Source of the DNA: Argiope bruennichi | Taxonomy: Eukaryota | Reading direction: 5' to 3' | DNA: 64,000 nt | NCBI RefSeq assembly: GCF_947563725.1 | Contig: NC_079159.1 | Coordinates: forward strand, 100,177,559-100,241,558 | In this document: in pieces, positions 12,201 through 35,828 of the stretch | Position numbering within the stretch: the stretch's first letter is position 1 | Layout: each line of letters opens with the position of its first letter | Made by a program: the position numbers and the translations under genes | Notes under the pieces: model-generated | The model's database searches: none | The model's input: the letters and a program-made list of their open reading frames with translations, nothing else | What the model was told of the DNA's origin: nothing

Positions 12201-12616
12201 TGTTGGTGGAGGGTCAATCACAAATTAAAATGCAAATGTTTACATCTTCAGCGCAGATGAAGCGACGCAGGAATGCCTCATAAGGAAATAAAAATATGCT
12301 TCATATCTTTAGTTTTAAATATAAATTTTAAAATCTATGCTTCCTGAAAAATACTTTAAAATTTTGTATCATGAATTAAAGAATATAACTTAAAAATAGC
12401 AAAGTCAATGAACTTGTAAAAAAACTTAGAAATGTTTGCATATGCAAATATATGCCTCTAATTGGTGGGTCCCATAATCTCAACAGACGCATCATTATAT
12501 TATGTTATTTCTGCTCTGTCATTGATCAATCGCATAGCTTACGTAAGGATAACTCGCACATCAATATTTCGCACTTCTGCTACATTTTGAGAATGCAATT
12601 AGCCTGTACAAACATT

Positions 12617-13477: not shown

Positions 13478-13509
<32 letters not shown>

Positions 13510-13688
13510 GGTGGAGTCGTTTAAGTACAACGGTTTATTTGTCACCTCCCTTAAATAAAACAGAATTGCAATAACGCATTTTAGAGGGTTGTCGTGACAT
13601 CACCGAACAAGAACTTGACAGAAGTATCATCAGACGAATGCATCTCTGTATTGGCATCGAAGGAAAACAATTTGAACAAGTTATGTAA
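12617..13688 (+). pseudogene. Tc1/mariner (maT-like, DDE_3) transposase pseudogene with frameshifts and stop codons
   Basis: The N-terminus is MSQYSNEELFDILVLYSLCNRNASETARKFRRKYQF (HTH of DUF4817 type).
Shifted frames then give GRRILHSTDEEINILAYFCCHPHSSVRIAASEMNLSRAAVWRILRRNRWHPFSIHGVQEQEPTDFLRHLEFCN (second HTH), then NIIWTVEFCFKQDECKNPQNEHFWS (the FSDE..F.L.G..N.QN.R.W block).
Next come YVNAILNVVIPDF...FQHDGSPAHHAIVVKHWLNNEFPDKWIGLHGPIEFPTRSHDLTLMNF (the FQQDGAPAH...GPIEWPARSPDL block), and a C-terminal ITEQELDRSIIRRMHLCIGIEGKQFEQVM followed by a stop.
Several frame changes are needed to read through. Confidence 0.75.
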
Positions 13689-15183: not shown

Positions 15184-15727
15184 CAGGGTGTCCCAAAAAA
15201 ATTTATACACATTTTAGCAGCTGATAACTAAGTTATTTCTTCTTTCTTTACTGACTGAACCCATTGAACCGAGTGATGGCAGACAGACTTGAATTTGAAG
15301 AAAGGAAATTTATTCTAAAATGCTACTGGAAGTATGAAAATGCAGTAGAAGTGCAAAGACAATTTAAGAGGGAGTTTAACAAAGAACCACCTACACGAGT
15401 TACTATCACTCGAATTAGAGCTAAGTTTGAAGCTGATGGAACTGTTCAGGACGTCCATAAACCTGCAACAGTTGTTCAATTGAGGGCAACCATTGAACAT
15501 GAATGTACGAATATCCCAAGGGAATTGTTCCATCATGTGTGCTATTCCATCGCTTCGCGTTGTCAGCAGTGTCTGGAGCAGAGCGGACATCAGTTTGAGA
15601 ACATGCGATAACAAGACAATAGAATGATATTTGTAGAATCTTTTACATGCTGAAAATTATTCGAATTATAATAAACCCCAAATTTACAATTATTTAAAGT
15701 GTGTATACTTTTTTTTGGGACACCCTG
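15184..15727 (+). mobile_element. MITE-like internal-deletion derivative of the same maT-like family (perfect 28-bp TIRs, TA TSD)
   Basis: The 5-prime TIR is ACAGGGTGTCCCAAAAAAATTTATACAC (15184-). The 3-prime end is GTGTATACTTTTTTTTGGGACACCCTGT (to 15727), which is its reverse complement with one extra A. TA is at 15182-15183 and at 15728-15729. The 544-bp element carries one 115-aa ORF. Confidence 0.85.
15264..15611 (+). CDS. Truncated transposase ORF: N-terminal DUF4817-type HTH fused in frame to the transposase C-terminal tail (DDE core deleted)
   Basis: MNRVMADRLEFEERKFILKCYWKYENAVEVQRQFKREFNKEPPTRVTITRIRAKFEADGTV... matches the HTH of the 12617 pseudogene. ...NIPRELFHHVCYSIASRCQQCLEQSGHQFENMR matches its C-terminal ITEQEL...CIGIEGKQFEQVM tail. 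Confidence 0.6.
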   Translation: MNRVMADRLEFEERKFILKCYWKYENAVEVQRQFKREFNKEPPTRVTITRIRAKFEADGTVQDVHKPATVVQLRATIEHECTNIPRELFHHVCYSIASRCQQCLEQSGHQFENMR

Positions 15728-16540
15728 TATATATATTTATTCATTTACTTTTGACAACAAAATCCTTTTTCGACTTTTTAATGCTTTATCTTAGGAAAGT
15801 AATAAATCCATTTCTTTATAGGCATATTAACAGAATATTTACTTTGTATTTGTTAACAGCTGATGTAGTTGTTACAGTGTTAAACTATTAGACAATACAG
15901 CCTCAATCTCGAGGAATTCGTCACTCTGTCCTTTACTCTTCTATTGAAAATGTTTGCCTGTCTTATAATAAACGTTTTCAGTAAAATAAATTTATTACTA
16001 ATGAAGGAAAACAAAAGATCCCAAATTTAGCCTTTTAATGATATGAAGAAGATTTTCTTTCCCTTAAAATCCTCATTTCGAAAGTTTATTTTCAGATCTT
16101 TTCTTACATAATGTAAAAGCCGAGTGTATTATATTTTTGTGCGAATTCTTCGATTGAAATTCCCATCAGCAACTCGTATTTTGCGTTAAAAGAAGAAATG
16201 TTGAAATGTATCTACTTCTAAGCATCGTTTTTTTTTTTTTGAGTGAGAGAGAGAGAGAGCTGAATATGCTGTGGAAAAATTATAAAATAGATTCTTTTTT
16301 TAGCTCAACAAACGCGGTGTCCCTCGAATGAAGTATGGTCGTATCCTGTCGATGGCTGCAATACATGCTTACCAGAACCGTTTTGTGAAACAAGACAAGA
16401 ATTTGGCTGTAACTGCAGAAGCGGATACACAAGAGAGATCTTCACTGGATTCTGCATTTCGAGAGCTCTTTGTCCACGTAAGTAGTTTATCATTAGTTTG
16501 CCATAACCAGAGCTCTAAAAAAAAGTTATTAACTATCTCT

Positions 16541-16938
16541 TTATGTAATCTCTGGCCATTTTGGATTACATGTGAACGTGATAAATAAACATGGTCGTCC
16601 ATATTCGCGCACGAAAGTCAGAGCATCCTGTATATATTCTTGCATATGACGTGGACTGCCTACGTACGATGATGGTAAAATGACATGGTTACCAATTTCG
16701 GCGACGTCGGCGTTGTTGTTGGTAGCGTCTCGCAAATGAATGTACTCTTCCGCGCGCAGCTTTTGTTGATTATATCGTAAGTATCGTAGTCGTTCGCTCT
16801 CAATCTTCGCGTACATGTCGACCATGAATTGTTGACAAAGCTCACGACATCGTAAAATGACGTTGTCCAGGCCACGTCTAATCATTAATCGGTACGCATA
16901 ATAATCCTTTGAGCTAACGTTCTTGTTTGTTTCAGCTC
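16541..16938 (-). CDS. Helitron Rep protein, exon 2 (Helitron_like_N core ending FITFTCNPKWPEIT)
   Basis: See the exon 1 and intron evidence. A stop follows PEIT. Downstream sequence (16305-16493, another frame) is degenerate. Confidence 0.6.
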
Positions 16939-17039
16939 CTGTAATATTTGTTCATAAAAATTAATTTAAATTTATTACGTTCAATAATTTAATTGTTTTG
17001 TTAAATGATTAATGATCAAATTAATAATGAATGAAGTAC
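16939..17039 (-). other. Predicted 101-bp intron in the Helitron Rep gene
   Basis: On the minus strand the donor is ATCAG|GTACTTCATTC and the acceptor is ...TTTTTATGAACAAATATTACAG|GAGCTG.
Splicing joins ...RDPVS-G-AETNKNVSSKDYYAYRLMIRRGLDNVIL... in frame.
This restores a continuous Helitron_like_N domain across ORFs 16981-18189 and 16541-16885. Confidence 0.5.
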
Positions 17040-18189
17040 CTGATACGGGATCTCGTTGTTTTATGTTTATGCAATATCCGTCTTGTCCTTTCCAGAATAT
17101 TAGCGGATATTGGAGAGCGTCATATGAACGATGTGTGTCAGCAATGAACTGAAGATTATTATTTCTTCTACGAATCAGAATTTCTCGTGCAGCTGTACAA
17201 TCGCCAACCATGATTCCAGCAACATCATCAACAACGGGTGCATTGAATCTACGAATATGCTCTCCAGCTGGTGTTTTATCAGGATTAATGACGATAGCGT
17301 GATTATCGCTTTGTAATTGGTGCATATGTGATTTGAATATTTTCAACAACTCGTTGTGCTCGTTCAAAAGAGCATCTAGCTCGCTGACGATGCGCCTGGC
17401 ATAAAGTGAATCAAGGTTATTATAATCACAACGTGCATTCACGCGATTGGCAAGTGCGCTTCCGGAATCCTCGCCGCCCATAAAGTAGATTTGTAAGAAT
17501 TTATGTGGTTCGTTTGGCATTGGCAGCAGTGAGCCCATTTTATGATAAACTTGGCTTCTGATTTTGAATGTAGAATTGAATTGTTGACCATTTGCATTAG
17601 TATTTCGAACTATTTCTGTTGCTCCGAACGATGTCATTTGAAAGCATGAATTGAATCTTCGAATTGACTTCAGGAACACGTTAGAATCTGGATCCGTGCC
17701 GATAAGTAAGCCGTTCAATGGTTCAGGTGGTGTTTCAATTTCAGGTAGTTGCACTTTTCCTGACGCGCAACACATCCCAGCTGGCTCATTTTTGAATTTC
17801 AGAGCATGACAATGCGGACATTCCTTGTCCATAGCACCAATTACCACTTTTGAATGAGCATAATATTCAATATCGGGCTCATACTGGAATGCTAGACGCA
17901 GGAATGAATCAGATATAAATGCTCGATGTACCTGCTGTCGTTGTTGGTCATTTGTTCTTCGTCTATTGACTGTGAAACGGCGTGATTGTCGTTGTTCTAA
18001 TCTTCTGCCTTCATTGCGTTCAGCTCGTGTATCTTCTGGCTCTTCTTGATGCAATTGCGCCATTCTGACACGTGCATCAGTATTTTGTTGCTGGATTTGT
18101 TCTTCTGTTCTTTCGGATCTGCTATTTCGCAAGTTTCGAGCTTTACTTGTACTGCGGCTCAAATCAGCCCCTTTGCGTTTTCTTGGCAT
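17040..18189 (-). CDS. Helitron Rep protein, exon 1 (N-terminal zinc-finger-like region and start of the Rep domain)
   Basis: A 402-aa ORF starts with Met at 18189. A predicted splice donor, DPVS then G|GTACTT, lies at 17040/17039 on the minus strand. Confidence 0.65.
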
Positions 18190-19439
18190 TGCTCACTGTA
18201 AAAATTGAAACTATGAAAATCTTAATTGTTCAATTACATTTTTTTAATAAAATTAAATTAAAATTACATTTTTATAAGATCAACAACATTTTCGATATAA
18301 ATAAAAAAAAGTATACTTACAACACAAAATCCGTTGTTATTGGAAGCTCGTGTCACGTGTTGAGTACTTTTGAGGTTATAAAATCACTTGATTAACTAAT
18401 CGTGCAAAATACACTCAAAATTGATAATTTAATTATTATTGATAAAATAGGAATGATTAAAAGTTAATATGAGAGTTACACTGAGATAGCAAAATAATAA
18501 TTGTCAACGTTACTACTACACTTGATGCATAAACAATAATGATGGCCGACAACTGTGTAGGGAGTGAGAAAGAAAGGAGACCGGCTTCGTTCTCATCCCT
18601 ACTCCGTGCTGTTTACTGGGTCAGAAGTGACACCTGTAGACATCTGGCGGGGATAACTAATTAAATGACGATTGATCAGTTTTCGACCGGAGAGGAAAAA
18701 TGATTAAATTACTAAAATGGCTATTAAAAAATAAGGGCTGATCGTAGAAGGGGGAAAATTGAGGATTGTATGTATTTTTGTATGTTGTATCATAAAAAAA
18801 TAGAAATTAAAAATTTTGTCTAAAAAAAAATAAAAAAAAATTAGGGGTGGACTACCCCTAACATTTAGGGGGATGAAAAATAGATGTTGGCCGATTCTCA
18901 TAGATACCGGATAAGCACAAAAAATTTCATCAAAATCGGTCAAGCCGTTTCGGAGGAGTATGGCAACGAAAACTGTGACACGAGAATTTTATATATTAGA
19001 TTGATTCTTCCAGCCATTCGATTCCAAAATTACATAGCATTATCTCTCGCGTCTTCCAGAATAGATGCTACTTTGATATTTTGGAAGAAGTTCTCATTCC
19101 GCTTTGAAATTGCCATTGAGCATGCAATTCATTGAAACTTCCACGTGCAACATTTTCAAAGCATCCAACATCTGAAAAGTATTGAAGAAATGCAAACATA
19201 TAGTTTGAGATGATTTTAGAATGGAGTACAAAAAATCACTCGACGTTTTTGATAGATCATTGTAAGATTTGTGTGGAAACATAAGGCATTTAGCTTAATA
19301 TTGTACTGCATTATATTGCTATAAACATTAATATTACTTGCAGGAAATTTCAGGCAAAAAATTGCCTCTAATTCCTCATCGACACCAACGGACGAAATAA
19401 ATGTTTGCCTGAAATATTCTCCTGGATGGCGACACATAA

Positions 19440-20240
19440 AGATATTAAAATTACCAGCTACAAAACGATAGATCAGCTGAGTTATTCTTACATCAATTGC
19501 TGGAAATTAGGAACGGAAAGGCGTTGGTTGATCCAATCTCAGGAATGATTTCATTGTTTCATAACTTCTGCAATTCGGAGACGTCAAAGGAAATATTAGT
19601 TGAAAAAGCATTTTCCAATATACAAAGCAGTTATAAGAAACAGGATTGGCTGAATGAATGAGCTATTCTTGCGACCAAGGAGAAAGACATCTACAAACTG
19701 AACAATATTATTTAGTCTAACTTTCAAAATGAGACAGTCACCTACAAGTCCGTCGACACTGTTATGGGAGCAGATGAAGTAGTTCATTAACCAACAAGTG
19801 TTTTGAATTCCCTCGATCTGCCAGGGAGGCTGCCGCACATGCTACAATTGAAAATCGGCGTGCAAATTATCATGTTACGAAATATCTATAAAGCAAAGCT
19901 TTGCAAAACCACACGGTTTGTCGTAGAAATGATGATGAGCAATATAGTAGAAACAATAATTTTGACAGGACCTTGCAAAAGTGAAGTTCTCCTCGCATTC
20001 CTATGATTCTAACAAATATGCCATTTCAGTTTACGAGATCGCAATTTTCTTTCGATTGGAGTTTGTAATTGACATTAACAAAACTCAGGGCCAATCTTTA
20101 AAATTGTGCGGTTTATATATGCTTTTCATATACACAATTCCAGATTTCCATGTTCTTAAGTCGGGTAACCAGACAATCTCAAAATTTGCAAAGACAATGG
20201 GACAACAAAAATATAGTATACTCATAAGCATTGTAAAATA
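19440..20240 (+). pseudogene. Pif1-like (Helitron-type) helicase C-terminal fragment, pseudogenised, plus strand
   Basis: Shifted plus-strand frames give LLEIRNGKALVDPISG (for LL.IGNG....I.IP), DWLNE*AILATKEKDIYKLNNII (for WL..RAILAPKN..VD.IN..IL) and VTYKSVDTV (for Y.S.DS).
They also give LDLPGRLPHMLQLKIGVQIIMLRNIYKAKLCKTTRFVV (for ...P..L.LKVG.PIMLLRNL....GLCNGTRL.V), IPRIPMIPSDMPFQFTRSQF (for IPRI.L.PSD...PF.F.R.QFP) and VIDINKTQGQSL (for AMTINKSQGQTL).
The fragment is interrupted by stops and frameshifts. Confidence 0.75.
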
Positions 20241-20380
20241 AAACATATTAGAAATATGCACTTTATCTTTTCTTTCTTTTCCATTTAGCCAACCTGAGAC
20301 AAAACAACACATGACCGGGTACAGCTAGGGTTCATTAAATTTTTAACTGTGTTTCAAATACATGCATTTATGTGTTCATC

Positions 20381-20661
20381 TGAGGCCACGGTGACCTGAT
20401 GGTAAGGTCTCGCCTTCGGAACTGGAGGGTGTCAGGTTCGAGACCCAATTCCACCGAAGAACCGTCGTGTAAGTGGGTCTGGTGCACGCTAAATCGTCCG
20501 GGCCAAATGTCCTCCCGCTGGTGTGGTGTGGAGAGAGGGGGTGCTGGCTCAGGTGTCGTCCTCGTCATCTGACCGGGGTTCAAATGTACGAGCTCCGTCC
20601 CCAAATAGCCCCCGTGTTGCTGTAAAACGAGACGTGAATATAACTAAAGTAAACTAAACTT
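20381..20661 (+). mobile_element. tRNA-derived SINE, copy 2 (same family as 4881-5167)
   Basis: Collinear with copy 1: GGTGACCTGATGGTAAGGTCTCGCCTTCGGAACTGGAGGGTGTCAGGTTCGAGACCCAATTCCACCGAAGAACCGT ... GTTGCTGTAAAACGAGACGTGAATATAACTAAAGTAAACTAAAC. It was inserted immediately downstream of the helicase pseudogene. Confidence 0.7.
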
Positions 20662-21216
20662 ATGTATTGACCTGCTTTCTGTATTTATTCCAAATAAGTG
20701 GTTATTTTTAACTTTAATGCATGTTATCCTTGGGTGTAAAGTTCATCTATACGATGAAACTAGATTTGGTATTTTGCTAAGGGTGAAATTTCGGCACTGC
20801 TTTGTTTGGAATACAAAATGAAATAATAATAATAATAATAATTTTTTGAAGTGATTGTTTTAACTTAGTATTGATTTGGTTTTGAAACTTTAGAATGATG
20901 TAACATTTCAATTAAATAGTTTTTGAATTATGCTTCTTTTCTTTCTAGATTAAAAAAAAAAAATATTTAAATTTAGTTATTCTCATACAGTTTCGTTAAC
21001 TTACTGCTACTTTTAGCAATAGCTGCTAAATAATAGGCAAGGCAAGTTTATGATCTGTGTCTTAATTGCGTCTCATTTGATTAGAACTAATATTTTTCTT
21101 CATAATCACGTCTGTACTGAATTAATGTTTGTATTGTTTATTATTATATTTTTCAAACTAACGATGTTCTTCAATTTTTATTACAATTTTATTATATTTG
21201 TTATGAATTTTTCTAG

Positions 21217-21370
21217 TGGCTCCTGCGACTGTTTCAACAATAACATCGACGAATTCCACAATGGAACCAACTAACACTTCCATGGAATCTACTACCCCTA
21301 CCATGGAATCTACTACCGCTACCATGGAACCAACTTCCGCTACCATGGAATTCAACTCTACAGCAACATG
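21217..21370 (+). other. Coding-like 21-bp tandem repeat (about 5 units, TMESTTP-type), a possible terminal exon of a Thr/Ser-rich mucin-like protein; the strand is ambiguous
   Basis: The units are ACCATGGAATCTACTACCCCT, ACCATGGAATCTACTACCGCT, ACCATGGAACCAACTTCCGCT and ACCATGGAATTCAACTCTACA. The plus frame reads APATVSTITSTNSTMEPTNTSMESTTPTMESTTATMEPTSATMEFNSTATA then stop, preceded by an acceptor-like TTTTTCTAG|T at 21209-21217. The minus strand carries a 101-aa ORF (21158-21463) with a hydrophobic N-terminus. A period of 21, which is 3 times 7, is consistent with coding. Confidence 0.3.
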
Positions 21371-22683
21371 AGCACTGAGATCAAAACTAAAAGAATATGA
21401 ATAGATAATTTTCAAATGGAAAAAACTGAATAATTTTAATAGTGAAACAGATAATAATGGCAAACTAGGATATTTTTTATCAATCTTTAAGACATTGAAA
21501 AAATAAAAAACGTTATCATTTCATCTCAGAAAACTTATGAAATAATACTGAAAATTTACCATTTCAAATTAAGGCTTTCAATCCCAACAGAAATATTGTC
21601 CTTCAACCAATTTAATTTGTTGGCAATAAGTCTTTTAAATAAATGAAACAAAGAGAGACCAAATAATATATAGAAAGATCACCAGAATCCAAAAATTTCT
21701 TTTTCACATAATCTTAAAAATAGGGAGGGGGACAGAATTTTTATCATTTCAAATAAATATGTTATGCACTTATTCAGAATGCTGAAAACATTCACAATAA
21801 TTTTATTTATTTTAAAATATTTTCTTCCACTGTTATATTTAATAAGAGTTATTTTTTAAATTTAATTCACAATTGAGAAAAGAAATGATATTGGAGATTG
21901 TTAGTTATTGATTTATTTGTCAATAAATTTCTGTAAGCACATAGAAAAAAAAATTTCTTCTGGAATGAAAATAACAATAATTTTTTCGATCACTTTCTTC
22001 TGAAAAACGATTTTTTTAACATAAAGATTTCTTTCCTTATAATGTATCCGACTCTCTGACTGGGTTTTCATGATTTCCGATATTCAACTTTATAATAAAG
22101 TAGTCAAAATACCAATTAATTTAAAACGCAAATATCATTTAAACGCACATAAAAATCTGAGGAGTCATTTGCATTCTTGTGCGCTTGGAAACAATAAATG
22201 CCACAATAAAATGCGGTGTTTAGTTAAAAAAAATATTAAAAATAAATTCAGAAGATAATAAATAATAAGGTGAATGATGGTAGAAAACTTTTATATTCCT
22301 CTCATATATGTAGTTGGCATTTTAAAGGATATTTATAATTTCTTTAGTATTTATTAAAGACTTTACTAAATTTATCTTTATTTGGTATTTACTAAGGGTT
22401 TTATTTTAACAAAGTTCTTCCAGAATTTCTTTTTTTTTTCTTATATAGGTTATTTTTTATATCAATAGAAATATTTATTTTATTTTACTGAATGCTTCTA
22501 AATTAGACTTACAAGTTATTACAGTATGCAGAAAACAAAAGGCGAGTTATATTCTCTAAAGGGAGCATAAAGTAATTACAGCTGGTTAAATAATGTGTGA
22601 TTAAAATGAAATAAATCTACAAATGCTGAATGCAAAATAGTTTGAATTGTTGCGCAAATAGTTTTATTAAACATAATAACAAG

Positions 22684-22817
<134 letters not shown>

Positions 22818-22945
22818 GCAATTAAACAGTATTCCAAATTTCAGAAATTATCAGTGATGCACTCTTGGCTTTGTTATCCAATGACTACTCTCCCTTTTCG
22901 AGGAATTCCGTTCATCACAAAATCATTTTTCTAACGTTTAATTTG

Positions 22946-23167
22946 CTACTTCATTAAAGCATCCTCCTTTGTATCTGTGTCAAAATATTCTTTGGGATCG
23001 ATGCACTTTTCATCAAGTCCCCTGACGAGTCCCTCTTCGCACACGCAACCTGGAACACAAATCCGGGTGCAAGGCAAAGGTTTCATCCAATTGGTGCAGT
23101 TTTTCTGATAGTGCGCTCGCTCTACAGGGGTCGAAACGTTCTTTGGGTGGACATCCCGCTTGATCAA
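22946..23167 (-). CDS. TIL-domain (trypsin-inhibitor-like cysteine-rich) exon, paralog 1, probably degenerate
   Basis: The translation is LIKRDVHPKNVSTPVERAHYQKNCTNWMKPLPCTRICVPGCVCEEGLVRGLDEKCIDPKEY.... It has the TIL signature ...C-x3-C-x3-C-x-C-x3-[FL]VR-x5-C-[IV]. Aligned to paralog 2, the C1, C2 and C3 positions are H, R and Y. The exon is preceded on the minus strand by a poly-T tract followed by CAG (acceptor-like) at 23168-23190. The M in the ORF track is really a TTG codon. Confidence 0.55.
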   Translation of the reverse strand: MIKRDVHPKNVSTPVERAHYQKNCTNWMKPLPCTRICVPGCVCEEGLVRGLDEKCIDPKEYFDTDTKEDALMK

Positions 23168-23285
23168 CTGAAAAAAAAAAAAAAAAAAATCGTCAATTTT
23201 AATACGCGTCGCACATTATACTTTAAAATGTAATATAGAATTTGAATTTGTAATTCTTTTTAATCAAGGGGAAAAACAATTTTCT

Positions 23286-24050
23286 CTTTCTCGTATACGG
23301 AGTGTATAGAAAGTACTGTAATAGTCAAAAAAAAAAAAAAAAAAAAAGAAATCGAACACGAGATTTTGGCGAATCTCCACATTTTTTACCACCCTAGGTT
23401 CGAAGAACACATTTTTGGAATTATGCATTTGTCTTCGTTCCAAGAAATAACTCACACACGCTTTGAGCTAGATGGATGGAATTTGGTCTTTACGCTAAAT
23501 TTGTAGATTTCTATCAAGTTTTGAGTAAAATCCATCCTGAGGGAGTTTGTCCGTTCAGCTCTTCAATATAAGTTGACACGATAACTACAAAACGAAGAGA
23601 ACTAGATGGATAAAATTTGGCACGCATATTTAACATCTGTATTGTAGAAACTTAACAAACTTCGAGCTAAATCCAATTAGGTGGGTGACCGTCTGTTGGT
23701 CCATACTTTACATGTAGACGCAATAATTCAAAAACGCTGACTGAGCTATATAACATGCGATTTTGTGACTACAAATATAGTTCTATATCACATTTTCGTT
23801 TCAATCGGTTGGGAAAAATGAGTCTAAAACACAAATTTGGTTTTCGGATACTCTTAATTGGCATGCAAGGGATTAATCAACAAAACTTTCCAATTATTAC
23901 ACGATAGATTCAGTAAAAATGCTAAATTCATGCCAAAGGTTAATATTTCATAACTATTGTACATTTATGTCATGCAAGGCATTCTCTGGGATAACATTTT
24001 TATTAGAGAATATGCGAGAAAGTTTTGGGGAAACCATTTCTACTGGTGAA
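23286..24050 (+). repeat. Dispersed non-autonomous repeat family, copy 1 of 4
   Basis: It shares long collinear blocks with 27930-28235, 29643-30557 and 40136-40645. Examples are AATCGAAC.CGAGATTTTGGCGAATCT, ACGCTTTGAGCTAGATGGATGGAATTTG, TAGATTTCTATCAAGTTTTGAG.AAAATC and ATTAGAGAATATGCGAGAAAGTTTTGGGGAAACCA. A short inverted terminal motif (CTTTCTCGTATAC ... GTATGCGAGAAAG) is present. It has no ORF. Confidence 0.65.
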
Positions 24051-24408
24051 AAAAAAGGAAGGGAAAAAATGGACTTTTGAAGAACTACTACAAGTCCTAA
24101 AAATTCACACTAATGCGCAGTTGTTCATTCATTTCCATTAGCTGCTCCATGACTTAAATATCTGCCGACGATATCTTAATCTCCATTGCATTATCTTCGA
24201 CTGCAATTGCAGCACTAATTATCCAATTAACGATATTTAAAATTGCGTGGTCGACCGCGAATTCTCGACTTTCACGCCGGTATAAAACGGACTTAATATT
24301 GCATATCTAAAAATTAATGCTTGTCAGAACACGTCGAATAGTTTTGTGCATTCAATAGTTTGGAAGAAAAGCAAGAATTCGAAACGAAAAAATATTTTCT
24401 CTTTCTGG

Positions 24409-24687
24409 TTAAAATTTGTTTTTCTCGGTACCTCGAATGTTTTGTAGATGGAGATGAATGAACTCGCTATTGGATAGACCTGTTCCCGAAGATCTTTTTA
24501 ATGAATATTTTTGCGGCGAAATGCAGTTGTTTTCGGGTCCTCTGACCTTCCCTTTTCTACAGACACAACCGAAGACGCAGATTTTTGAGCATAGCATGAC
24601 AGTATCTTTGTAATTGGAGCAATTTCTTAGACAGTGAGCATGGCATTCGCTCATCTCTTCACCGGCCGGGCAATCTGTATTCGCTGT
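24409..24687 (-). CDS. TIL-domain exon, paralog 2 (most complete N-terminal half)
   Basis: The translation is TANTDCPAGEEMSECHAHCLRNCSNYKDTVMLCSKICVFGCVCRKGKVRGPENNCISPQKY.... The cysteine spacing C-x8-C-x3-C-x3-C-x9-C-x3-C-x3-C-x-C-x11-C-I fits the TIL fold for C1-C9. The tenth cysteine is absent. An acceptor-like CTCTTTATTTCGAG|ACA lies on the minus strand at 24688-24700. The ORF is also open up to a Met at 24816, so a single-exon reading cannot be excluded. Confidence 0.6.
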   Translation of the reverse strand, partial: TANTDCPAGEEMSECHAHCLRNCSNYKDTVMLCSKICVFGCVCRKGKVRGPENNCISPQKYSLKRSSGTGLSNSEFIHLHLQNIRGTEKNKF

Positions 24688-25210
24688 CTCGAAATAAAGA
24701 GCGAATGTTAATATATTTGTATCCATTAAATTTTTTTCTGCAATGCAGCATGCAATGTTTAATGATATAATGCGTATTGTGCAAAATAATGATTTGATGT
24801 TGAACGTAGTGTTCAACGATGAAATTACACATCATATCTGATCATGACAAATTTGAGATGCATTTTGTTTCAATTTGCTGATTGAATAATTAAAAAATAA
24901 TAATTTTGCTGGATTAGGTTTCGACATCAAGTTGACTAGAGAGTTTAAGTCTACAATTAACGCTGGGGAAAATGGATAGATAATTGAAAATAGTTGAAAA
25001 AAATATGCTAATTTTATGATTTATAAATGATATACATTATTGCAATAAGGTACAATGAGGTATTAAATCTGTTGATGCACGAAATAGATAATAACTTTAT
25101 AATCATCTTCTATTCTTATTCATTAAAATATTAGTTATAATTATTTTTAATAAAATATTTGTTCCTAATTGCAAAACCCTTTATCTGCAATATAATATTT
25201 AAAATTTCCA

Positions 25211-25448
25211 TTAAAATCCCCTCATTCTTCGAATTTCTTCCATACTTGGAATTGAAATTTTATTTTCCGAACCATGGCAGTTTTTCTTTTTTATGCATTT
25301 GGTATTGTGCCCCCGGACGAATCCGCTGTCGCAGACGCACCCAGGAACACAGAAAAAGGGCAGACGACCGACTTGTTGAGGTCGCCGCAGTTTCTTTGGC
25401 AGCGTGCTGAGCAAGGTGCGAAGTGCTCATTCAGTGTACAACGAAGAC
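25211..25448 (-). pseudogene. TIL-domain exon, paralog 3, with an apparent 1-bp frameshift in an A5/T5 homopolymer
   Basis: One frame gives LRCTLNEHFAPCSARCQRNCGDLNKSVVCP. The +1 frame gives FFCVPGCVCDSGFVRGHNTKCIKKKNC. Together they make a complete 10-Cys TIL domain only if one T is added in the run CCCTTTTTC (plus-strand GAAAAAGGG at about 25343-25351). An acceptor-like pyrimidine tract followed by CCTAAG| lies at 25449-25475 on the minus strand. Confidence 0.55.
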
Positions 25449-26924
25449 CTTAGGAATGAAAATAATAATAATAATAATAATAATAATTTAAAAACATTAC
25501 AACCTTTTTCTATACCCCGTAAAGCACCTGAAAATGAATATGAATTTAAGAAAAAACTATAACACTTAATTTGAGAAAAATTAAAACCACCATTAGGTTT
25601 ACAATTGCAATTCTAAACTTCCAACTGATACTTGGGGACTACAAGGGATATGTATCATTGTTTTTAAGGTGTACGTACACACTAGAAGAATTTTTTTTTA
25701 AATTTTAACTTTAAAAATCCCTTTTTTTTCACAGTAGGTCATTAATATATGTTTAAACTCATTTTAGTGAGAAAAAACCATATTACACTAATTATTCATT
25801 AATTAAATAATATTTAATGAGCTAATTAGCATATTTTTTGAAACATGATATTTTAAATTCTAATTTGTACAGACACACAATTCTAGTTGGAAATTATGCC
25901 TAATATTAGTCTTCATGTTGTCTGCCTCAATCAAGTTATAAAAATACATAGTTTTTTTTAACGATTTTTTCATCACCGATGAATAGAAAAAGCGAGATTT
26001 TTTGTGTAATTTTAACTTTTAAATAGCTATCAAAAATTTATTTCTATGAATATAACTTTGATTGAAGCACAAAACATCCGCTATTTCATACAGATTATTT
26101 TGATATATAAATAATTGTATTTTGTTAATTTATTGTTGCGTTATGATTGTTTGAATGAAGCAACATAGTGGGAAAATATCATTTTTAATAAAATGAGTTG
26201 TTTTAAAAAAATCGTAACTAGAGTTTTTAATGAAAGCTCCTCAAGAAAAATAATTATAACTCGAGAAATATTTCGAATATTGACAACATCTTGGTATCGT
26301 TTGAAAGCTAAAGGATCAGAGAACATTATTAAGCAATAAAAAAAAATCGATATTTTGAACGATTTTCGAAGTTTCAAGTGTGTACATACACCTTAATTTA
26401 AACAAGCTCATGTGTGTATCTGATTCAACCCTATTATTCTTAATTTAAAGTATTTGTTATAATGGTTATTAACTGTGTAAAGCTAAAACATTCAACTTTT
26501 TTCATAAAATTGGTAGAATCAATTCTGGTTTTATAATAATGACCTGGTGTGTTTATAAGAAAGAACTGAGAGAAGAATAATCAAAGCATATAACATAAAT
26601 TTATATTTATTTTCTCTTATAATTTCCTTCGATACCTTTCATAATTACAATCCATGCTGTAGTTAACAGCAGACATAATCCTTAACATCAGTCATACAAA
26701 ATGTTATAAATTCTTATCGAATACTTGTACAAATTTTCGAAATATTATTTATATTTTCAGGGGCTTGAATTATAATTAACATTCTTTTCTAATTTTTAAA
26801 ATTACGTACAGCAATGTGGTCTGTAACAGTGAAACATTTCATTAATAGAACAGCAATTGAATTTTCATGTGTAAATGCGTAGTCTTAGATTCGGTTCAGA
26901 TAATCAATGAATGATCAGTTGATG

Positions 26925-26992
26925 GCCATTCCCCCCCCCCCCCCATCATCTGAATGATAATATGATGATGTATAAGGAAAGGGGGGGGAATA
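26925..26992. other. C16 ... G8 inverted homopolymers around a short palindrome (potential hairpin or cruciform)
   Basis: The sequence is TTCCCCCCCCCCCCCCCCATCATCTGAATGATAATATGATGATGTATAAGGAAAGGGGGGGGAAT. The inner ATCATC...GATGAT arms are complementary, and the outer C and G runs are complementary. Confidence 0.5.
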
Positions 26993-27929
26993 AAAGGAAA
27001 GGATAATTAAATTAATGATTGGGCTTTGAAAACGAAACATGAAAATTCTGAAATACAGAGAGAATCATTAAAAACAAATTGATTATAATGACTGGAATAA
27101 AAATTATTTCAATGAATGTTAAAAAAACTACGATAAGTTCCATTCTTGCATTATGCCTTGTTTATGTTAAATCATTTTATTATCTCTCAAAATGTTTTTT
27201 TATACTTTTTTGGAAATGCGGAAAATCATAGTTCCATAATAAAGACAAATCCTAACCTTTGTTGAGAATTGAATTACATAAAATAAGTTAAACAAGGAGA
27301 TGATTTCCACGACAGTCAAAGAGCAAAAAGCTGTTAGGCCATTCATATGATGATCATTGCTCGTTCTCTGTTGGTCAAAATGCCAAAAAAAAAAAAAAAA
27401 AAATTCATGTCATTAATTAAAGTTAAAAAATTCCAGTGCTTTGTCTCTTAATGAAAAAGATATCTGCAGTTTTATTTTAAATTAAATAACTGACATAAAA
27501 AAGATAAACTATTTTTAATTTGTGATGCATATAGTAAAAAAAAAAAAAAAAAATAGAATAAAAGAAAATTATTCTTTGCAACTTTTATTTAAAATATAGA
27601 ATATGATTGCACATCGTATTAAAAATTAAACTTTATTTATTTATTTATTTTTGCCTCGTCCAGAAAAATGCTTTCAGAGTGAGAAGTAGCTTTATATTTT
27701 TAAAGAACTTGGATTATTCCGTTTATATTTCATTAATTAATAGTTCATATTAATCAAATAACGAGATCTAGTTTTCTAAAAGTCAACCTCAGACGCAGCT
27801 TTCTGCTCGAATTTTACAATCAGTCTCTTTAAATGTACAATGTGGATAGATTGCGTGAAAGAAATATTGTAAAATTAATGGAAAAATATTTTCTTTTCCT
27901 TTTTTATTTCTTCTAACTTTTTACCATTC

Positions 27930-28235
27930 CCTATGCTAAGTAAACAGTACAGAAGTATACAAAGACAGTATATTGAAATCGCTAAATAATTTGAACTCGA
28001 AATTTTGACGAATCTCTACGTTTTAGACCTTTTCGAGTCCAGAAATATTTTTCAAATTATGTCTGTCTGTATGTGAACACGATAACTCAAAAGCACTTTG
28101 AGTTAGACGGACAAAATCCAATTTGAAATCTTTACATAAAATGTTTAGATTTCCACCATATGTTGCAAGAGATTTATTCTCTTGGGTTTTCCAGTGCACG
28201 TGAACACGACAATTAATGAATGTGCACCTTTCTTT
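27930..28235 (+). repeat. Dispersed repeat family, copy 2 (3-prime truncated)
   Basis: Matches the 5-prime third of copy 1: ...AATTTGAACTCGAAATTTTGACGAATCTCTACG...GCACTTTGAGTTAGACGGACAAAATCCAATTTGAAATCTTTACAT.... Confidence 0.5.
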
Positions 28236-29642
28236 GCAATGTTAGATTTTTTAAAAATTTAAATTAATTAAAAAATTGATTTGCTGATTTTTGCCTTTTT
28301 TCCACAATATCTTCCGGTAATAGTATTGCACAAAAATGAAACGAATTCTGCATCATTGTATAATATAAAAAAATTATTTTTTAATGATACTTATTTAATA
28401 ATCTTGCAAATTTTTGTTGAATTTTGTCATTTTTTTAAATTTTTGATCGATTTTTTTACATTGTTGTCCCCAAATTTAAACTGTTTTCAATGTTTCATCA
28501 AATATTTGATCACTTAATTTTCTTCCACTGTTGAAAACGAAAGAAAAAAGATTCTGTTTAATATCTGTGAAGTTTACAAGATAAAAAAGTGAAGTTACAA
28601 TATCACAAAATTTAGACTAAAAATGAATTAAATATTTATGTTTTAATAGCGCTATGATGTCATGAGAGTACCTCCATTTGTAAGGTTCCTGTACACAATA
28701 AACAGAATTCAAGTAAGACAATTAAAATACACGGCTTTAATGTCAGATAATTTGGAGAAATCAAAAACATGAAAATATAAAATACGCTTTTTCTAAAATC
28801 AAATATAACCAGTATTACCTACTACCAGCTGGTCGTCTTATAATATTTAAACAAATTTTTTATCAATTATTATCCGAAGATTTTCAAATTCCTTGTCAGA
28901 TTTCAAAATTTTCGGAATCTGAATAATATTAAATGAGCAGATTTTTATTGTCTGCGTGTATGCTTTGTCTTATTGAACAGAGGAAATTAAGTGCAAAAAT
29001 GCACGACAAAGCATATTTTTTCCTCTGGCGAGCAATTTTTAAATTTGAATAATTGTTTATAAAAAAAGGAACTAATTAAATAATGTGAAGTAAGCAAGAA
29101 GTTGATTGACTATAAAGGTGAAACGGTTAAAAGAAATATACACCAAATAAATAATTGAAAAGAACAAGATTGTACGGCATTCAAATTTGTACAAAATATT
29201 CTTGAAGAAGTTCGGTGTCCATACTTTAGCAATTAAATGAAAGTAAGAAAATTTGTTGGAATTAAACATTTTTTTACTTAATACATTGTTAAAATGATTC
29301 TGATATCTTATAATGGAGAGAATTTAGTTTATAGAAATTTATTGATTTATTGATAAGAAAGTAGCGATTTTTAATCGATCTGCTTGAGACCCTTCTTAGC
29401 TTATCTAATTCGACATTGGCTCTTAATAACGATAGCTACTGTGATGGACGGCTGAAAAGGAAGGCAAAAGAAGCTAGATTACTTTTATCAATATATTGCA
29501 AATTAGCTTAAATAGATCCATATCTTTCGAAAGCTAGCTTTTATTGTATTCTTAACAATCAAAACTTCGCCACTTTTATGCCATGTGCCAACAAAATTAT
29601 TACAAAAGATTTTAGTTAACTTAGTTATATTTACATTCTTTC

Positions 29643-30557
29643 TTACTTTCTCGTATATGAGGTATAAAAATTGTATTGCAATGGTCGAAAAAATTCGAAC
29701 TCGCAATTTTGACGAATCTTTCTGTTTTAGAGCTCCTTGAGTTCGGAAAACACATTTAAAAAATGTTCGTCAATCTGTCACAAAGATAACTATAAAACGC
29801 TTTGAGTTAAATGGATGTAATTTGTCATATGGGTTTTGGACCAAATATTGTAGATTTCTACGAAATTTTGAGCAAAATCTGTCCAAAGGAGTCTGTCTGT
29901 TCGATTATTCGAAATGGAGACAATTAGATGCATTAAATTCAGTGCACATATTTATCGCACAAAGTGTAAACACCTACAAATTCTAAGCCAAATCCAATGA
30001 GGCATTGACCATAAACCTGATAACTCAAAAATACACTGATATAAATGTATCAAATTTAGTATGTTTCTTTCGGAGTATAAGTGTAGTTCTGCGTCAAATT
30101 GTTTTTTCAATCGATTGTAAAACGCACAGTCTAATTTCGGATGTTATTAACTGCATGTTAGGGATCAATCGCCAAAATCTCCGCCAAGGAGCATAGGACC
30201 GATTAAAAGTGTTTTGGCCCATGATGGCTCATTAAAAAAAAGCATAATCACATAGAAATCAAACACAAAATTTTGGACTGTATTACCATTGTTTTATTTT
30301 GAAAACTCTCTGGAACACACTAAAGGGTTGTATCCTTTGGCCGTTTGATGGCGCTACAAAATTAGTAGACGGGGCATTCTGCTGACTTATTGGCGCCAAC
30401 GACAACAACAACAACAAAAAAAAAAAACATTGAATTTTCGCCAAAGGTCAATATTTCATAACTATAGTACGCCAATGCCATGCAAGACATTCTCTGAAAA
30501 CATACCTTTATTAGAGAGTATGCGAGAAAGTTTTGAAAAGACCACTCCCGCTGTTTA
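29643..30557 (+). repeat. Dispersed repeat family, copy 3 (longest)
   Basis: It runs from CTTTCTCGTATATGAGG...AATTCGAACTCGCAATTTTGACGAATCTTTCTG to ...GCCAAAGGTCAATATTTCATAACTATAGTAC...ATTAGAGAGTATGCGAGAAAGTTTTGAAAAGACCAC. Confidence 0.65.
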
Positions 30558-33500
30558 ATCTTCCAGTGGGCATGTTCTCTTTACCAACAAGAAAAGTTGC
30601 GCATATTTCCAGGATACACTATTGTAAAATATAAATTTTTAACGCATCTTAAGTGAGGAACGATTAAACTCGATTTATGTTTATTTTTAATAAAAGATAT
30701 GATAATAATCCTTTGATACAAATTATCGAATTATTTCAAAAGCCAAACAATTTTGGCTATTGTTCCAAAATAATTTTGTGCTCCAATTGCCCCCCCCCAA
30801 GAAAAAAACAAATCATCTGGTAAATGGAGAGAGTTTGGCAAGGGATCGCTCGCTTAGGTTGTGTTTAAGAGTTCAATTATGAAAAGTAGATTGCAATTGG
30901 GTAGAGGCTCAGAGGTCAATAAATAAAATTATTTTGAAAGAGCTATTATTTTTTAAAAATGGAACTTAAAACATAAGGTCAAAATAAAATGAACAAACAA
31001 ATTGGAAAAATAAAAGAACTGAAATTGTCAGTATTCCAAACGTATTATTTACATTTATAATACAAAACTGTAGGAACAATAAGGGAATTAAAAAAAATGG
31101 AATTCTGACATTTTTACAACTTTCACAACCAAACTCTATATTTGTAGAGTGTTTTTCATATTCGGTGGTTTGCCTCTTTTTCTCCTGATGACGGCATGTC
31201 TTCCTGTCTTCAAAAAATAATTTTTGTTTTGTTTTGTTTGTCCAATAATTTTAGTTTTAATTTGCTTTGTAAACAGATTGGCTTCATCTCTCAACGCATT
31301 CTTTTATTTCTAGTTTTGTAGATATTTTCTTCGAAGTAGTTTTTCTTTATTATTTATCGAATAAATAGTTGTTGATTGCAGCCACATTATAAAACACTTA
31401 ATAAAATAAAAAGAAAAGAAGATGTAGCAAAAATTTACGTCAACGGTCGCTCGCATCGTTGAAATATAAATAGACGATTGCAGAGTTCTATTAGCATCTT
31501 GAGTTCCAAACGTTAACCAACGCTTTGTCGAAAGGAGAATAGTTTAAGTCTCATTTTGAAACATATTTCGTAATTTTGAACCGTGGTTAGACAGCAATGA
31601 TGACTTGGGTCAGATCCCCCCCCCCGCATTCGTTCATATTTCCGTACCATACTACTTTACATGGTAAATGTGTAGGCCAAAGTTAATCCATCCAGCGTTT
31701 TAAGTTTTTTAATTACCGTGGTCACTTACTAGACAGACTAAAAATTTTTCTGAATGGATTTCAATCAAAATTTGATCGAAATTTACATATATGGTATAAA
31801 GATGATATCGTATGGTATAAGATTATATATCAAACTTTATCCAGGCAACGTAATTGAATTTACATATATACAAACAGACGGATTCCATTCCAAAAAAAAT
31901 GTTTTTCAGACTTAATAAGGTCTGAACGTTTGAAGATTACTCTCAGTGTATTTCGTATACGAAAAATTAATTACCATATCCTAAAGCTATCACATAGTTT
32001 AAAATCTGATGTTAATCTTGTAAATAAATTTTCTATGCAATTAGTCTTCTAGAAGAATTAAATTTTGAAGTTGTAAATTTAATATATATTTGAAACTTAA
32101 TTCATCTACTTCTGCAATCCAAATAAATAAATAAATAAAATAGCTTACTTTCAACCTCTCTGAAATTTAAATAACAATTCTAACTTGCATACTTTTTCTG
32201 ATACAAATTCATTATCAAGATTTTTTTAAAGTTATATACATTCAATTTTAAAATTTCAATCAATTTTGAGCAATGTAGAATTAATAATAACCAAAAAATG
32301 GCCCGTTAATTAATAATAACCAATTTAATGTGTAATATTGGAATTTCCGCATTGTGTTATAATAATTCTATTATTTAATGATAAATGTAACGATTTTCCT
32401 TTTTTCCTGTGTATAAATATGATCAGAATTAAGATTCTTTGTGTTGTGGGTGTCTTAATAATTATTGTACCCCATTAAATACATTAATAAGTTTTAAATC
32501 TCGTGAGCTAAAAAATACGTTTTTCTTTAAATGTAAAACATTTTCATTTAATTTACTATAAAGTTCTGACAATTTTGTTTTCAAAACGAGTTTTTCCAAA
32601 CCGATCCGATTTTCATACTAAAATCTGTTTCACATGTAAATAGGCAATAAATATTCACTTAACTAAAAAAATAAAACAACGATAAATAAATGAATGCAGC
32701 TTGTCCTAAATGGAAATTATTCCCCGAAAACACCAATCATCCCGATTCGATTGAAAACTTTAACTATGTTTTCATCTTTCTCCAAGGCCATTTGTTAATT
32801 TTTCGAATAAATTATGCTAATTTGTGTTTTGTCTTCGTGTGTGCTCGCGCATTCTCGTTTCTTCCCGAACTTTCACGCTTTTCTCAGTTTGATTTTGTCC
32901 TTAAACCGGAGCAGGTGTTTGGCTTATTTGTGTTAAATTTTAATATGCTGGCATTTGAAAGTGAACTTTGGCGAGTGCAATTTTATCTATGGATCTTATA
33001 CCTAATCATCACTCCGTATTGCTTGAACTCTCCTCTTTGTTGTACCTCTTCAGTTGAACCTTAGAACCCTAAACATGGACTGAATCGCATCAGCGAAACT
33101 GCTTTGTAATTGATAATTGGCTAAAACTTTACTTTGTTTTTGTGCGCGTTCTTGTGTTTGCAAATGAAATAGATAACAAGGGTTAACAGCCATTGTTGTT
33201 ATAAATCCCTACCTCCAACTTTTTTCAAGTTTATCGATAGCTTTCGTATGAGCCATACTGGAAGACTTTAACGAGTACAACTTTGATTTTTGGATCATCT
33301 TTAAAACATAAGAAAAAAGTTTATTTAAAAGAAGATAGAAATAACCATAACTTATACAAATAAACAAGAAAAGTTGATGAATATGGAATAAATCTGTTTG
33401 AATGTCATCTACGAATTCTATAAGCTATGGTAAGTTGATATTTACTGTAATATTTTTATTGCTGAAGTTCTCCGATTATTGCAGTAATAAGCTTGATTTT

Positions 33501-34989
33501 ATGATGAAAGTATTTTATTTATGCATGCAATTATTTGAGCATTGTTAGTATGTATTTTAGAGACGAAAAACTTTTGTATGTAATAAGGAATCGACATTAA
33601 AGAAAGATAATTAATTTGAATAATACGATAAAGCACTGTTTATTATCCTTTCTCAAGGAACTGAAATATTTTTAAATGAAATGGTGTGCAATCGAAATTT
33701 TAATAAACTTATTTTATTGTGTTATGCTGATAATGTGATTTCATTTATAAAGAATTTAAAAAATTTTAAGTTAGTGTGGTATTAAAAACAGTAATTATAT
33801 TCTTAAACATTTATCACAAAAGTACAAAAAAAGTCGTTCCATCATTGCTTATCCTTTTAGTACTTATTTTATATGATTTTTATATGCATGTAAATAGACA
33901 TCTAATTGGAAAATTCTTTAATCGTCTTCTGTATTGCTGATTGTCTATAAGTATTAAAAGCAGCATGAAACTATTTCAATTCTTTGAACATTCTGACAAA
34001 GTACTCGAAGCTTTTCGAGTTCTACTTCATTTTTAAAGAAAAGTGATAATAAAATTCTTAAGCATTGGGTGTATTACTAATACTAGATAAATTTCCCATT
34101 TAATTAATAAGTTGTGAATAATTCCGATGCCGTCATATCGTTATTACAGTTGCCATACTCCTCAAATGTAATCTCTGCTTTTGAAAAGTCGAGTCTTCAA
34201 AACCGAAGTAGATATAATCAAAGCGTTTCGTCCATTTTAGGTTATCAAAGAAATACTTATTCCTTACAGTGATTACGAATGAAGCGGTTTCTTGCTACCA
34301 TGTGATGAAATAATTTATAAATGAAAGCAGCATGAAAACGTATAAATGGTGCTTTACCGTAATTTTAATAGAAACTCATTTACGTACTGCATGTTAAAAA
34401 ACTATTTCATCAGAGTTTGTTGAAATAATTAGATTTGTAATTTTTTAAATTTAAGACTGATTTATCATTCAATGGCACTAGTAAAGTTTTAATTTTCGTG
34501 TCTTGATAAAGATTAAATATAAAGCAAACTAATAATTTCTTATTTGTGAATTATCTCTATATTTTAATTATTTTGGAATGTGATTTTCTTGCTACCATTA
34601 GTCAACGTTTCAATTAATTAAAACTTGCCAACAATCTGCAAAAGAATACAAATCAATTTCACTTAAAAAAAAATTAAGTTTGGCAATTTTGTCGTATTCT
34701 TTAGTTTATATAGTTCGAGTTCATATTAAAGAACTCGAACTAACAGAAACCAATCATCACTCCTTTGGATTTTAATTGTTTGTAAACTATCTTGAGCGAT
34801 GTGCATTTTGTTAAGCAAAACTAAATTAGTTTCAGAAAAATATAATTGGTTTTTGTGTAGTGCTATAATTTCGGAACGATGAGTATTTGAATTCGTTGCG
34901 ATTTTCTTTTCTTTTTTTTTTTGTATCGTAAAAAAAAATCATAGGAGATCTTATTTGAAAATTCTGACCATCTGTCCAAATCTAAAATG

Positions 34990-35018
<29 letters not shown>
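34990..35018. repeat. poly(A) tract, about 29 nt
   Basis: Read directly. Other A-rich runs nearby are at 35051-35090 and 35228-35258. Confidence 0.9.
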
Positions 35019-35021
<3 letters not shown>

Positions 35022-35753
35022 AGGATTTTTAATTTTGTTGGCGTTTTTTCTTTTCGTATGAAACTTGCATTTGGTTTCCCCCTCCCCTCCCCTCCCCATA
35101 TGAAACTACATGGCTTTTGCGCCAGAAAAACCGAAACAACCAAACCGAACCCCGTATGAAACTTGTAAAGGAAATATTTGTACACGAAGTCGATAAGTAG
35201 TGTGTAAAAGTCGCAAAAATTAAATTGTAATTTTCTTTTTTTTTCTTTTTTTTTTTTTGTATATAAATTAGGCCTAAGTGAAGATAAGTGTGCACCAGCT
35301 GTTTGTCACCAATATTGCAACCCATCGGATCCCTCTTATAGCAATCGTACTGATGTTTTGTTTATTACTTTTTCCAATGGTTGAGTTGTACATAAACTAC
35401 AATTACATTATGAAAAATGTTAAATTAAAAATATTAAAAAAATATCGATTAAAGATTTTAATTTTGTTCTTTATTATAATTAAAATTTATTAAATAAAGA
35501 AAGTTAAGCTTATAATTAAAAGTTATTTTCTTCTTTCTTTTTTTTAATGTGAATACGAACAGAAAATATTTATTCTTTTGCAATCTTTAATTGTCAGTGT
35601 GCGCTTTAAAAAAATCGTCTGCATTCTCACTTTAAAAGACAGCTGCAAAGGAATTCTTCGCAATTCTCGTAATTCTTTTGGTGTTATAATGGTTGGTTCC
35701 CTTCATAATTTATGTCGGGAGTATTTCGAACCTGTAGAATGGATGAAGGGTGA

Positions 35754-35756
<3 letters not shown>

Positions 35757-35822
<66 letters not shown>
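35757..35822. repeat. (TA)n microsatellite, about 33 units
   Basis: Read directly. The IYIYIY tail of ORF 35578-35829 is an artefact of it. Confidence 0.95.

Positions 35823-35828
<6 letters not shown>

Follow-up and report, generated by a model that had tools for sequence, protein, structure and literature searches.

Three cysteine-rich exons, each encoding a trypsin-inhibitor-like (TIL) domain, lie in tandem on the minus strand of a 64-kb stretch of Argiope bruennichi DNA (RefSeq assembly GCF_947563725.1, contig NC_079159.1, positions 100,177,559 to 100,241,558; this whole stretch of 64,000 nucleotides is referred to as the window, and positions without further specification are counted from its first letter). 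Their arrangement raises the question of whether they form a small cluster of protease-inhibitor peptide genes, as the initial annotation of the locus had proposed, or whether they share a common origin of a different kind. Our analysis of these exons, designated C, B, and A in the order in which they would be transcribed, indicates that they probably make up a pseudogene, a non-processed copy, truncated at its 5' end, of a gene for a secreted serine-protease inhibitor with several TIL domains.

The three stretches are genuine TIL domains (Pfam PF01826) of the Ascaris/AMCI inhibitor type. The cysteine-rich peptide strings on which the initial annotation had been built were all present where it had placed them, and comparison with the PF01826 profile put every exon above the gathering score of 24.5 bits. 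After frame repair, exons C, B, and A scored 49.3, 40.6, and 39.0 bits, respectively (E 5.5e-13 to 9e-10), and two unrepaired open reading frames (ORFs) also exceeded the gathering score (33.2 bits for the raw ORF of exon A, and 29.9 bits). A custom hidden Markov model (HMM) derived from araneid TIL domains, run on the 2952 six-frame fragments representing the whole window, recovered four exons, three on the minus strand and one on the plus strand; because noise fragments began only at E values of at least 2, the three exons lie far beyond chance. Exon C encodes the peptide LRC TLNEHFAP C SAR C QRN C GDLNKSVV C PF(F) C VPG C V C DSGFVRGHNTK C IKKKN C HGSENKISIP, exon B encodes TNTD C PAGEEMSE C HAH C LRN C SNYKDTVML C SKI C VFG C V C RKGKVRGPENN C ISPQK Y SLKRSSGTGLSN, and exon A, once repaired, encodes IDQAG C PPKERFDP C RAH Y QKN C TNWMKPLP C TRI C VPG C V C EEGLVRGLDEK C IDPKE Y FDTDTKEDALMK, followed by the stop codon. 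The ten-cysteine scaffold that had been ascribed to all three was only partly borne out: the family assignment is correct, but the full set of ten conserved cysteines occurs in exon C alone, and there only when a 1-bp repair allows its T-run to be read as six bases (T6), whereas exon B retains nine of the ten, and exon A retains eight in addition to carrying a 4-bp frameshift. The solved structure nearest to the domain in exon C is that of honeybee AMCI-1 (PDB 1CCV), with which it aligns cysteine for cysteine.

Searched as a concatenated query against known proteins, the exons matched few entries, every one of them a multi-TIL protein. The best match was an unnamed 236-aa protein of Larinioides sclopetarius (P0001; 61% identity, 95% query coverage), followed by an A. 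bruennichi protein named "Serine protease inhibitor swm-1 like protein" (P0002). Exons C, B, and A are colinear with three successive domains, hereafter dom1, dom2, and dom3, of both proteins. All exon junctions are in phase 1 and join in frame across introns of 562 bp (C/B) and 1300 bp (B/A), and a stop codon is found in the last exon, A, only. The C/B junction of the window copy (...KISIP/TNTDC) closely resembles that of the A. bruennichi protein (...KISIA/TNADC), and the linker between dom2 and dom3 is 19 aa long in the window copy, the parent copy, and Larinioides. The Larinioides protein has the same layout of a partial dom0 followed by dom1, dom2, and dom3, but it belongs to another genus, is fully in frame, and keeps every cysteine; it was used as the outgroup. 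Each window exon shares 59-76% identity with its Larinioides counterpart, compared with about 37-54% with the neighbouring window exons. Because each exon is nearest to its Larinioides counterpart, the divergence outside the cysteine scaffold, which had been attributed to a fast-evolving local gene family, reflects old divergence between domains. Judged from these alignments, the three exons belong to a single gene copy, in which they encode consecutive domains and are bounded in phase 1; they are not the three paralogous peptide genes originally envisaged.

The relationship of this copy to the swm-1-like gene became apparent from comparison with another A. bruennichi assembly. Window positions 611-29145 match one of its loci (CM027190.1:98571479-98602313; hereafter L002) at 96-98%, and positions 28216-18988 align with a further locus (CM027190.1:1652572-1689801; hereafter L001, positions 16349-36237) at 83-91% in blastn blocks. 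The latter alignment takes in exons, introns, and 3' flank, with 7-12% mismatch in aligned columns, and L001 lies about 97 Mb from L002 on the same chromosome, CM027190.1. From the 83-91% match, L001 was at first read as an ortholog from a sister Argiope species, which would have made the window copy a unitary pseudogene. This reading was dropped, as a plus-strand exon of the window is 100% identical to A. bruennichi HNY73_017006 and L002 matches the window at 96-98%. The window thus represents the ~98.6 Mb locus of A. bruennichi, in another assembly or individual, or that of a very close relative, and L001, on the same chromosome as L002, is a paralog. The gene at L001, which encodes P0002 and is regarded here as the parent, matches the window copy in its three TIL exons and their order, and shares with it the phase-1 junctions, the stop codon, the introns, and the 3' flank; its amino acid identity with the repaired window copy is ~86%. 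Unlike the window copy, the parent possesses an additional TIL exon (dom0) and a first exon that possibly codes for a signal peptide, and it keeps all 40 cysteines as well as the GT donor of its dom2 exon.

The 5' end of the copy is structurally incomplete. Homology ends upstream at window position 28216 (L001 16349), within the dom0-dom1 intron of the parent, which is its first long intron, and ~1.4 kb downstream of the parent dom0 exon (L001 14737-14946). Sensitive blastn, tblastn, and the custom TIL HMM detected no trace of dom0 or of the parent first exon anywhere in the 64 kb, and a scan of the window for an exon combining a methionine, a hydrophobic stretch, and a phase-1 donor upstream of exon C yielded no credible candidate. 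An in-frame stop is located directly 5' of the exon C acceptor. No signal-peptide or start exon for the three exons was found within the window. The initial annotation had likewise located no signal-peptide exons, which agrees with our result; its explanation, an incomplete gene model, does not hold, as the 5' exons lie outside the duplicated segment and the missing signal peptide is absent from that segment.

Some features of the two comparison loci concern their assembly and annotation. The sole defect of the parent, in that assembly, is a homopolymer shift in its dom2 exon (L001 25717-25931), which has A4 where the window copy has A5. The public P0002 model runs out of frame from ...LLCSK onward (SASPVVSVEKG...), affecting its last ~90 aa, and ends prematurely. 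The A4/A5 difference is likely a homopolymer assembly error rather than a real lesion. A possible true first exon of the parent lies at L001 9962-10010 (MTMTHFTYALFICMIY/G, donor ATG/gtatgt); joined to GLFEAESS, it resembles a signal peptide, and the public model starts at an internal methionine (MIY). At L002, positions 21061-24646 correspond to window 21500-25138 as an extra, indel-ridden copy (~92%) beside a clean partial copy (97%), and exon A is consequently present twice in the older assembly. A true tandem duplication seems less likely here than an artefact, either a haplotig or a product of polishing.

Lesions in the window copy were called by base-by-base comparison with the parent and by three-way alignment with the second assembly (Table 1). 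In exon A, a tandem duplication of AGCG lies between Cys2 and the former Cys3 of dom3, at a site where the parent has a single AGCG; when read from exon B, it shifts the frame and leads to a stop 37 codons later, within dom3. The presence of the duplication in both L002 copies as well as the window rules out an assembly error. The window copy has also lost three conserved cysteines to tyrosine, including Cys10 of dom2, which is a cysteine in both the parent copy and Larinioides. According to the TIL disulfide map (1-7, 2-6, 3-5, 4-10, 8-9; PMC10004685), the losses in dom2 and dom3 each remove a single partner, of disulfides 4-10, 3-5, and 4-10. Since only one partner per disulfide is lost, the pattern is that expected of decay rather than of adaptive remodelling. 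The donor site of exon B has changed from GT to GC. In exon C, a T-run that is one base short (T5) shifts the frame and leads to a stop 20 codons later within the exon; the second assembly of the locus has T6 and reads in frame as CPFFC, and the parent has TTTTGTC (CPFVC). T5 may be a polymorphism or a homopolymer error, and this 1-bp deletion, considered at one point a firm lesion, was downgraded since the other assembly reads in frame. The shifts of -1 in exon C and +4 in exon A sum to +3, which in this assembly returns the last two thirds of exon A to the original frame; this restoration looks coincidental, with three stops lying between.

The substitution pattern was examined with Larinioides as the reference for polarity. 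Sixteen replacements fell on the window copy versus six on the parent (binomial p=0.05), those on the window copy including two in the conserved VRGP motif (P>H in dom1 and P>L in dom3). Mismatch relative to the parent was 6.9-7.4% in the exons, only slightly less than the 7.7-12.4% in the introns and flank, and the pairwise dN/dS between the two copies was 0.49 (dS 0.13). These figures fit relaxed constraint on the window copy, although they are no proof of it. The GCA_015342795.1 public annotation contains no gene call over the three exons.

The most likely history begins with a parent gene in which four TIL domains, one per phase-1 exon, follow a probable signal peptide, the Larinioides orthologue being laid out alike. 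A segmental duplication of ~9 kb, bounded upstream by a point midway in the dom0-dom1 intron and taking in dom1-dom3 and the 3' flank, would have carried this part alone to ~98.6 Mb; the copy has no promoter, start codon, signal peptide, or dom0. Since then, it has picked up the 4-bp duplication that shifts the frame, three Cys>Tyr losses that are uncoordinated, a GC in place of the GT donor, and, in this assembly only, the 1-bp deletion. The locus displays the hallmarks of a duplicated pseudogene, namely, a paralogous parent with the introns retained, disabling changes, and an incomplete 5' end, and the copy most likely makes no functional inhibitor.

Several observations nevertheless weigh against the pseudogene interpretation. 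The copy retains its splice acceptors, its stop codon, and the donor of exon C, GC donors can function, transcription from a new upstream exon is possible, and the sequence upstream of exon C within the window amounts to only 36 kb. The exon C shift, as a T5/T6 homopolymer difference between two assemblies, may be unreal, and a T6 reading keeps the frame open across exons C and B and into A, until a stop 37 codons past the AGCG duplication. The dN/dS of 0.49 is a two-branch average that constitutes no proof of neutrality; the relative-rate excess is borderline at p=0.05; and the older assembly is error-prone, its sequence of this locus departing from that of the window by 2-4%, such that some differences of the parent copy are possibly errors. 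One alternative built on such observations is a still-active, restructured paralog, in which T6 would be the true state and the start codon and signal peptide would come from a newly acquired exon further upstream, located beyond the homologous segment or even beyond the window. Its product, a shortened inhibitor, would comprise an intact dom1 (with Phe at the reactive-site position P1), a dom2 with a free cysteine, and a frameshifted tail. The frame opened by T6, the ten cysteines retained in dom1, the preserved acceptors and exon C donor, and the slightly better conservation of exons than introns are consistent with this alternative. It is difficult to reconcile, however, with the lack of any start or signal exon in the 36 kb upstream and the in-frame stop just 5' of the exon C acceptor, with the GC donor at exon B, with an unpaired dom2 cysteine, with a premature dom3 stop found in both assemblies, with the excess of substitutions on the window copy, VRGP motif included, and with the missing gene model in the public annotation, and we regard it as unlikely. 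A variant in which the copy is in transition, with T5 (null) and T6 (open) alleles segregating and with transcription from a recruited upstream exon turning T6 into a shortened secreted inhibitor, appears more doubtful still. If true, the chymotrypsin-type dom1 would have its P1' residue changed from Val to Phe, the free cysteine of dom2 might serve to form multimers or covalent links, in silk or glue for instance, and the locus would offer an observable birth of a new gene from a partial duplicate.

The lesions could also be attributed to assembly artefacts, in which case the locus would be an intact, functional second multi-TIL copy. The exon C shift does lie in a homopolymer and differs between assemblies, and the older assembly has indel errors, such as those affecting the A4/A5 run of the parent dom2 and the tail of the neighbouring gene. 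In contrast, two independent assemblies agree exactly on the 4-bp duplication, the TAT codons of dom3, and the GC donor, none of which is of the homopolymer type, and the loss of dom0 and the 5' exons is structural; we consider this account very improbable. The original proposal of three separate tandem single-TIL peptide genes of the Api m 6-like venom, immune, or seminal kind, each with an undetected signal exon and together forming a fast-evolving family, deserves hardly any credence. Every exon is indeed one complete TIL unit that passes Pfam, and single-domain TIL peptides occur in arthropods, examples being AMCI-1 (1CCV) and the neighbouring plus-strand gene described below. Independent genes would not, however, be expected to line up with dom1-dom3 of single proteins with junction residues and linker length conserved, to join in frame through phase-1 boundaries with a stop only in the last exon, or to resemble their Larinioides counterparts more closely than one another, and the window scan found no signal-peptide-like exons between or upstream of the exons.

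With the locus understood as a damaged duplicate, the activity that has probably been lost can be considered from its parent. By analogy with inhibitors of the Ascaris/AMCI type, canonical (Laskowski) inhibition would be expected of each parent domain, the Cys5-Cys6 loop binding the protease as a substrate analogue. AMCI-1 (1CCV) and relatives of Api m 6 resemble these domains in having ten cysteines in the same scaffold and a reactive-site loop that spans Cys5 to Cys6, but AMCI-type inhibitors are single-domain secreted peptides with shown activity, whereas the window domains are exons of a truncated, damaged multi-domain copy. We take P1 to be the second residue after Cys5, as the P1-P1' pair is Met30-Gln31 in AMCI and Arg-Glu in the Ascaris trypsin inhibitor (loop C-T-R/E-C). 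By alignment only, the dom1 loop C-P-F-(F/V)-C stands opposite C-T-M-Q-C of AMCI, and the loops of dom2 and dom3 read C-S-K-I-C and C-T-R-I-C, which would place Phe, Lys, and Arg at P1 of dom1, dom2, and dom3, respectively. The intact parent is accordingly predicted to block one chymotrypsin-like protease through dom1 and two trypsin-like proteases through dom2 and dom3. Caenorhabditis elegans SWM-1, a secreted two-TIL inhibitor that restrains the seminal protease TRY-5 (PMC3219595), has a tandem-TIL secreted layout in common with the parent and is the source of the "swm-1 like" name. That name is an automated label; one-to-one orthology between the nematode and spider proteins is unlikely, and no role in sperm activation is implied. 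TIL inhibitors with eight cysteines, lacking Cys2 and Cys6, have been described as well, including Bombyx BmSPI38/39, BmFPI-F, and CvT-TIL (PMC10004685). This variant loses Cys2 and Cys6 together, which constitute one disulfide pair, whereas the minus-strand exons lose single partners of different disulfides. Literature searching for Argiope bruennichi together with "TIL domain" returned nothing.

Table 1. Features of the window discussed in the text. Positions are window coordinates; a slash marks an exon boundary.
Feature	Position	Strand	Details
Exon C (dom1 TIL exon)	25448-25246	minus	phase 1-1; acceptor cattcctaag/GT, donor CCAA/gtatgg
Exon B (dom2 TIL exon and linker)	24683-24468	minus	phase 1-1; acceptor tttcgagacag/CG, donor AATA/gcgagt
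Exon A (dom3 TIL exon and C-terminal tail)	23167-22946	minus	phase 1 acceptor tttttttcag/TT; TAG stop 22948-22946
Segment paralogous to the swm-1-like locus	18988-28216	.	blastn against L001 at ~1.65 Mb
4-bp tandem duplication of AGCG (AGCGAGCG), exon A	23121-23114	minus	in both L002 copies
dom3 Cys3 TGT>TAT (Tyr)	23110-23108	minus	also in second assembly; partner Cys5 unpaired
dom3 Cys10 TGT>TAT (Tyr)	22987-22985	minus	also in second assembly; partner Cys4 unpaired
dom2 Cys10 TGT>TAT (Tyr)	24507-24505	minus	second assembly too noisy here; partner Cys4 unpaired
Exon B donor GT>GC	24467-24466	minus	AATA/gcgagt versus parent AACA/gtgagt; in both assemblies
T5 run in exon C, 1 base short	25357-25353	minus	between Cys5 and Cys6 of dom1, P1' codon
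Secreted TIL-like gene, three exons	10489-10543, 16304-16477, 21217-21371	plus	all junctions phase 1; HNY73_017006

The minus-strand exons had also been described as the only convincing host coding sequence in the 64 kb, a statement contradicted by the three-exon gene on the plus strand, which is an intact, genuine host gene. It encodes a signal peptide (MLFLSGIISLGLSLLLAS), an eight-cysteine TIL-like domain, and a Thr-rich tail, and it has an orthologue in Araneus ventricosus at 73% identity. Its domain lacks exactly Cys2 (replaced by Pro) and Cys6 (replaced by Gln), the same pattern as in the antifungal Bombyx inhibitors BmSPI38/39 (PMC10004685), and scores 18.3 bits on Pfam TIL, under the gathering score. 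The gene is convergent with the pseudogene, and its last exon lies inside the duplicated segment. The possibility that its middle exon represents an inverted, relocated dom0 was considered and rejected, the exon being only 38% identical to dom0 and part of a separate gene of three exons that itself encodes a signal peptide. The Thr-rich last exon encodes 51 aa in the window, whereas the corresponding part of the public protein stops after 20 aa (…STNSTRENQN; L002 ~20770-20835); the annotated 96-aa protein is probably artificially truncated by indels in the older assembly.

The surroundings proved to be rich in transposable elements, in agreement with the initial annotation. Intron 2 of the plus-strand gene contains a Helitron fragment on the minus strand (16544-18192; Helitron_like_N, 120 bits, together with a 402-aa ORF without a Pfam match), which begins 67 bp downstream of the TIL-like exon. 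A plus-strand ORF in an intron of the same gene (15255-15608) encodes a DUF4817 helix-turn-helix (58 bits), a domain type found in transposases. Plus-strand fragments at 12389-13555 gave sub-threshold Pfam scores only (DUF4817, 16 bits; HTH_24, 17 bits) and, by eye, look like a decayed mariner-type transposase (FQHDGSPAHH...). An ORF at 1951-2373 has no Pfam match. A dispersed repeat of ~170-260 bp occurs at 23307-23476, 29640-29897, and 40143-40404, with 66-71% identity between copies, as well as at L001 16454-16624 and 26792-27050, one copy being near the upstream end of the duplicated segment. Long (TA)n microsatellites are present at 22684-22817, in the 3' flank of the pseudogene, and at 35755-35830, and a ~560-bp stretch (59545-60104) translates as a repeating peptide motif (…LESSKLKKK…).

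TIL inhibitors, multi-TIL proteins, and duplicated pseudogenes are familiar kinds, and the locus, although unannotated, is an ordinary member of them. It should be labelled a pseudogene that arose by partial duplication of the swm-1-like multi-TIL gene. Annotation is also affected by the public models of the parent protein, whose last ~90 residues are off frame, and of the neighbouring gene. Counting TIL-like exons such as these as genes would inflate both the apparent size and the apparent turnover of the spider TIL family. The locus adds one more case of birth-and-death turnover through segmental duplication in an arthropod protease-inhibitor family, and it leaves current understanding unchallenged.

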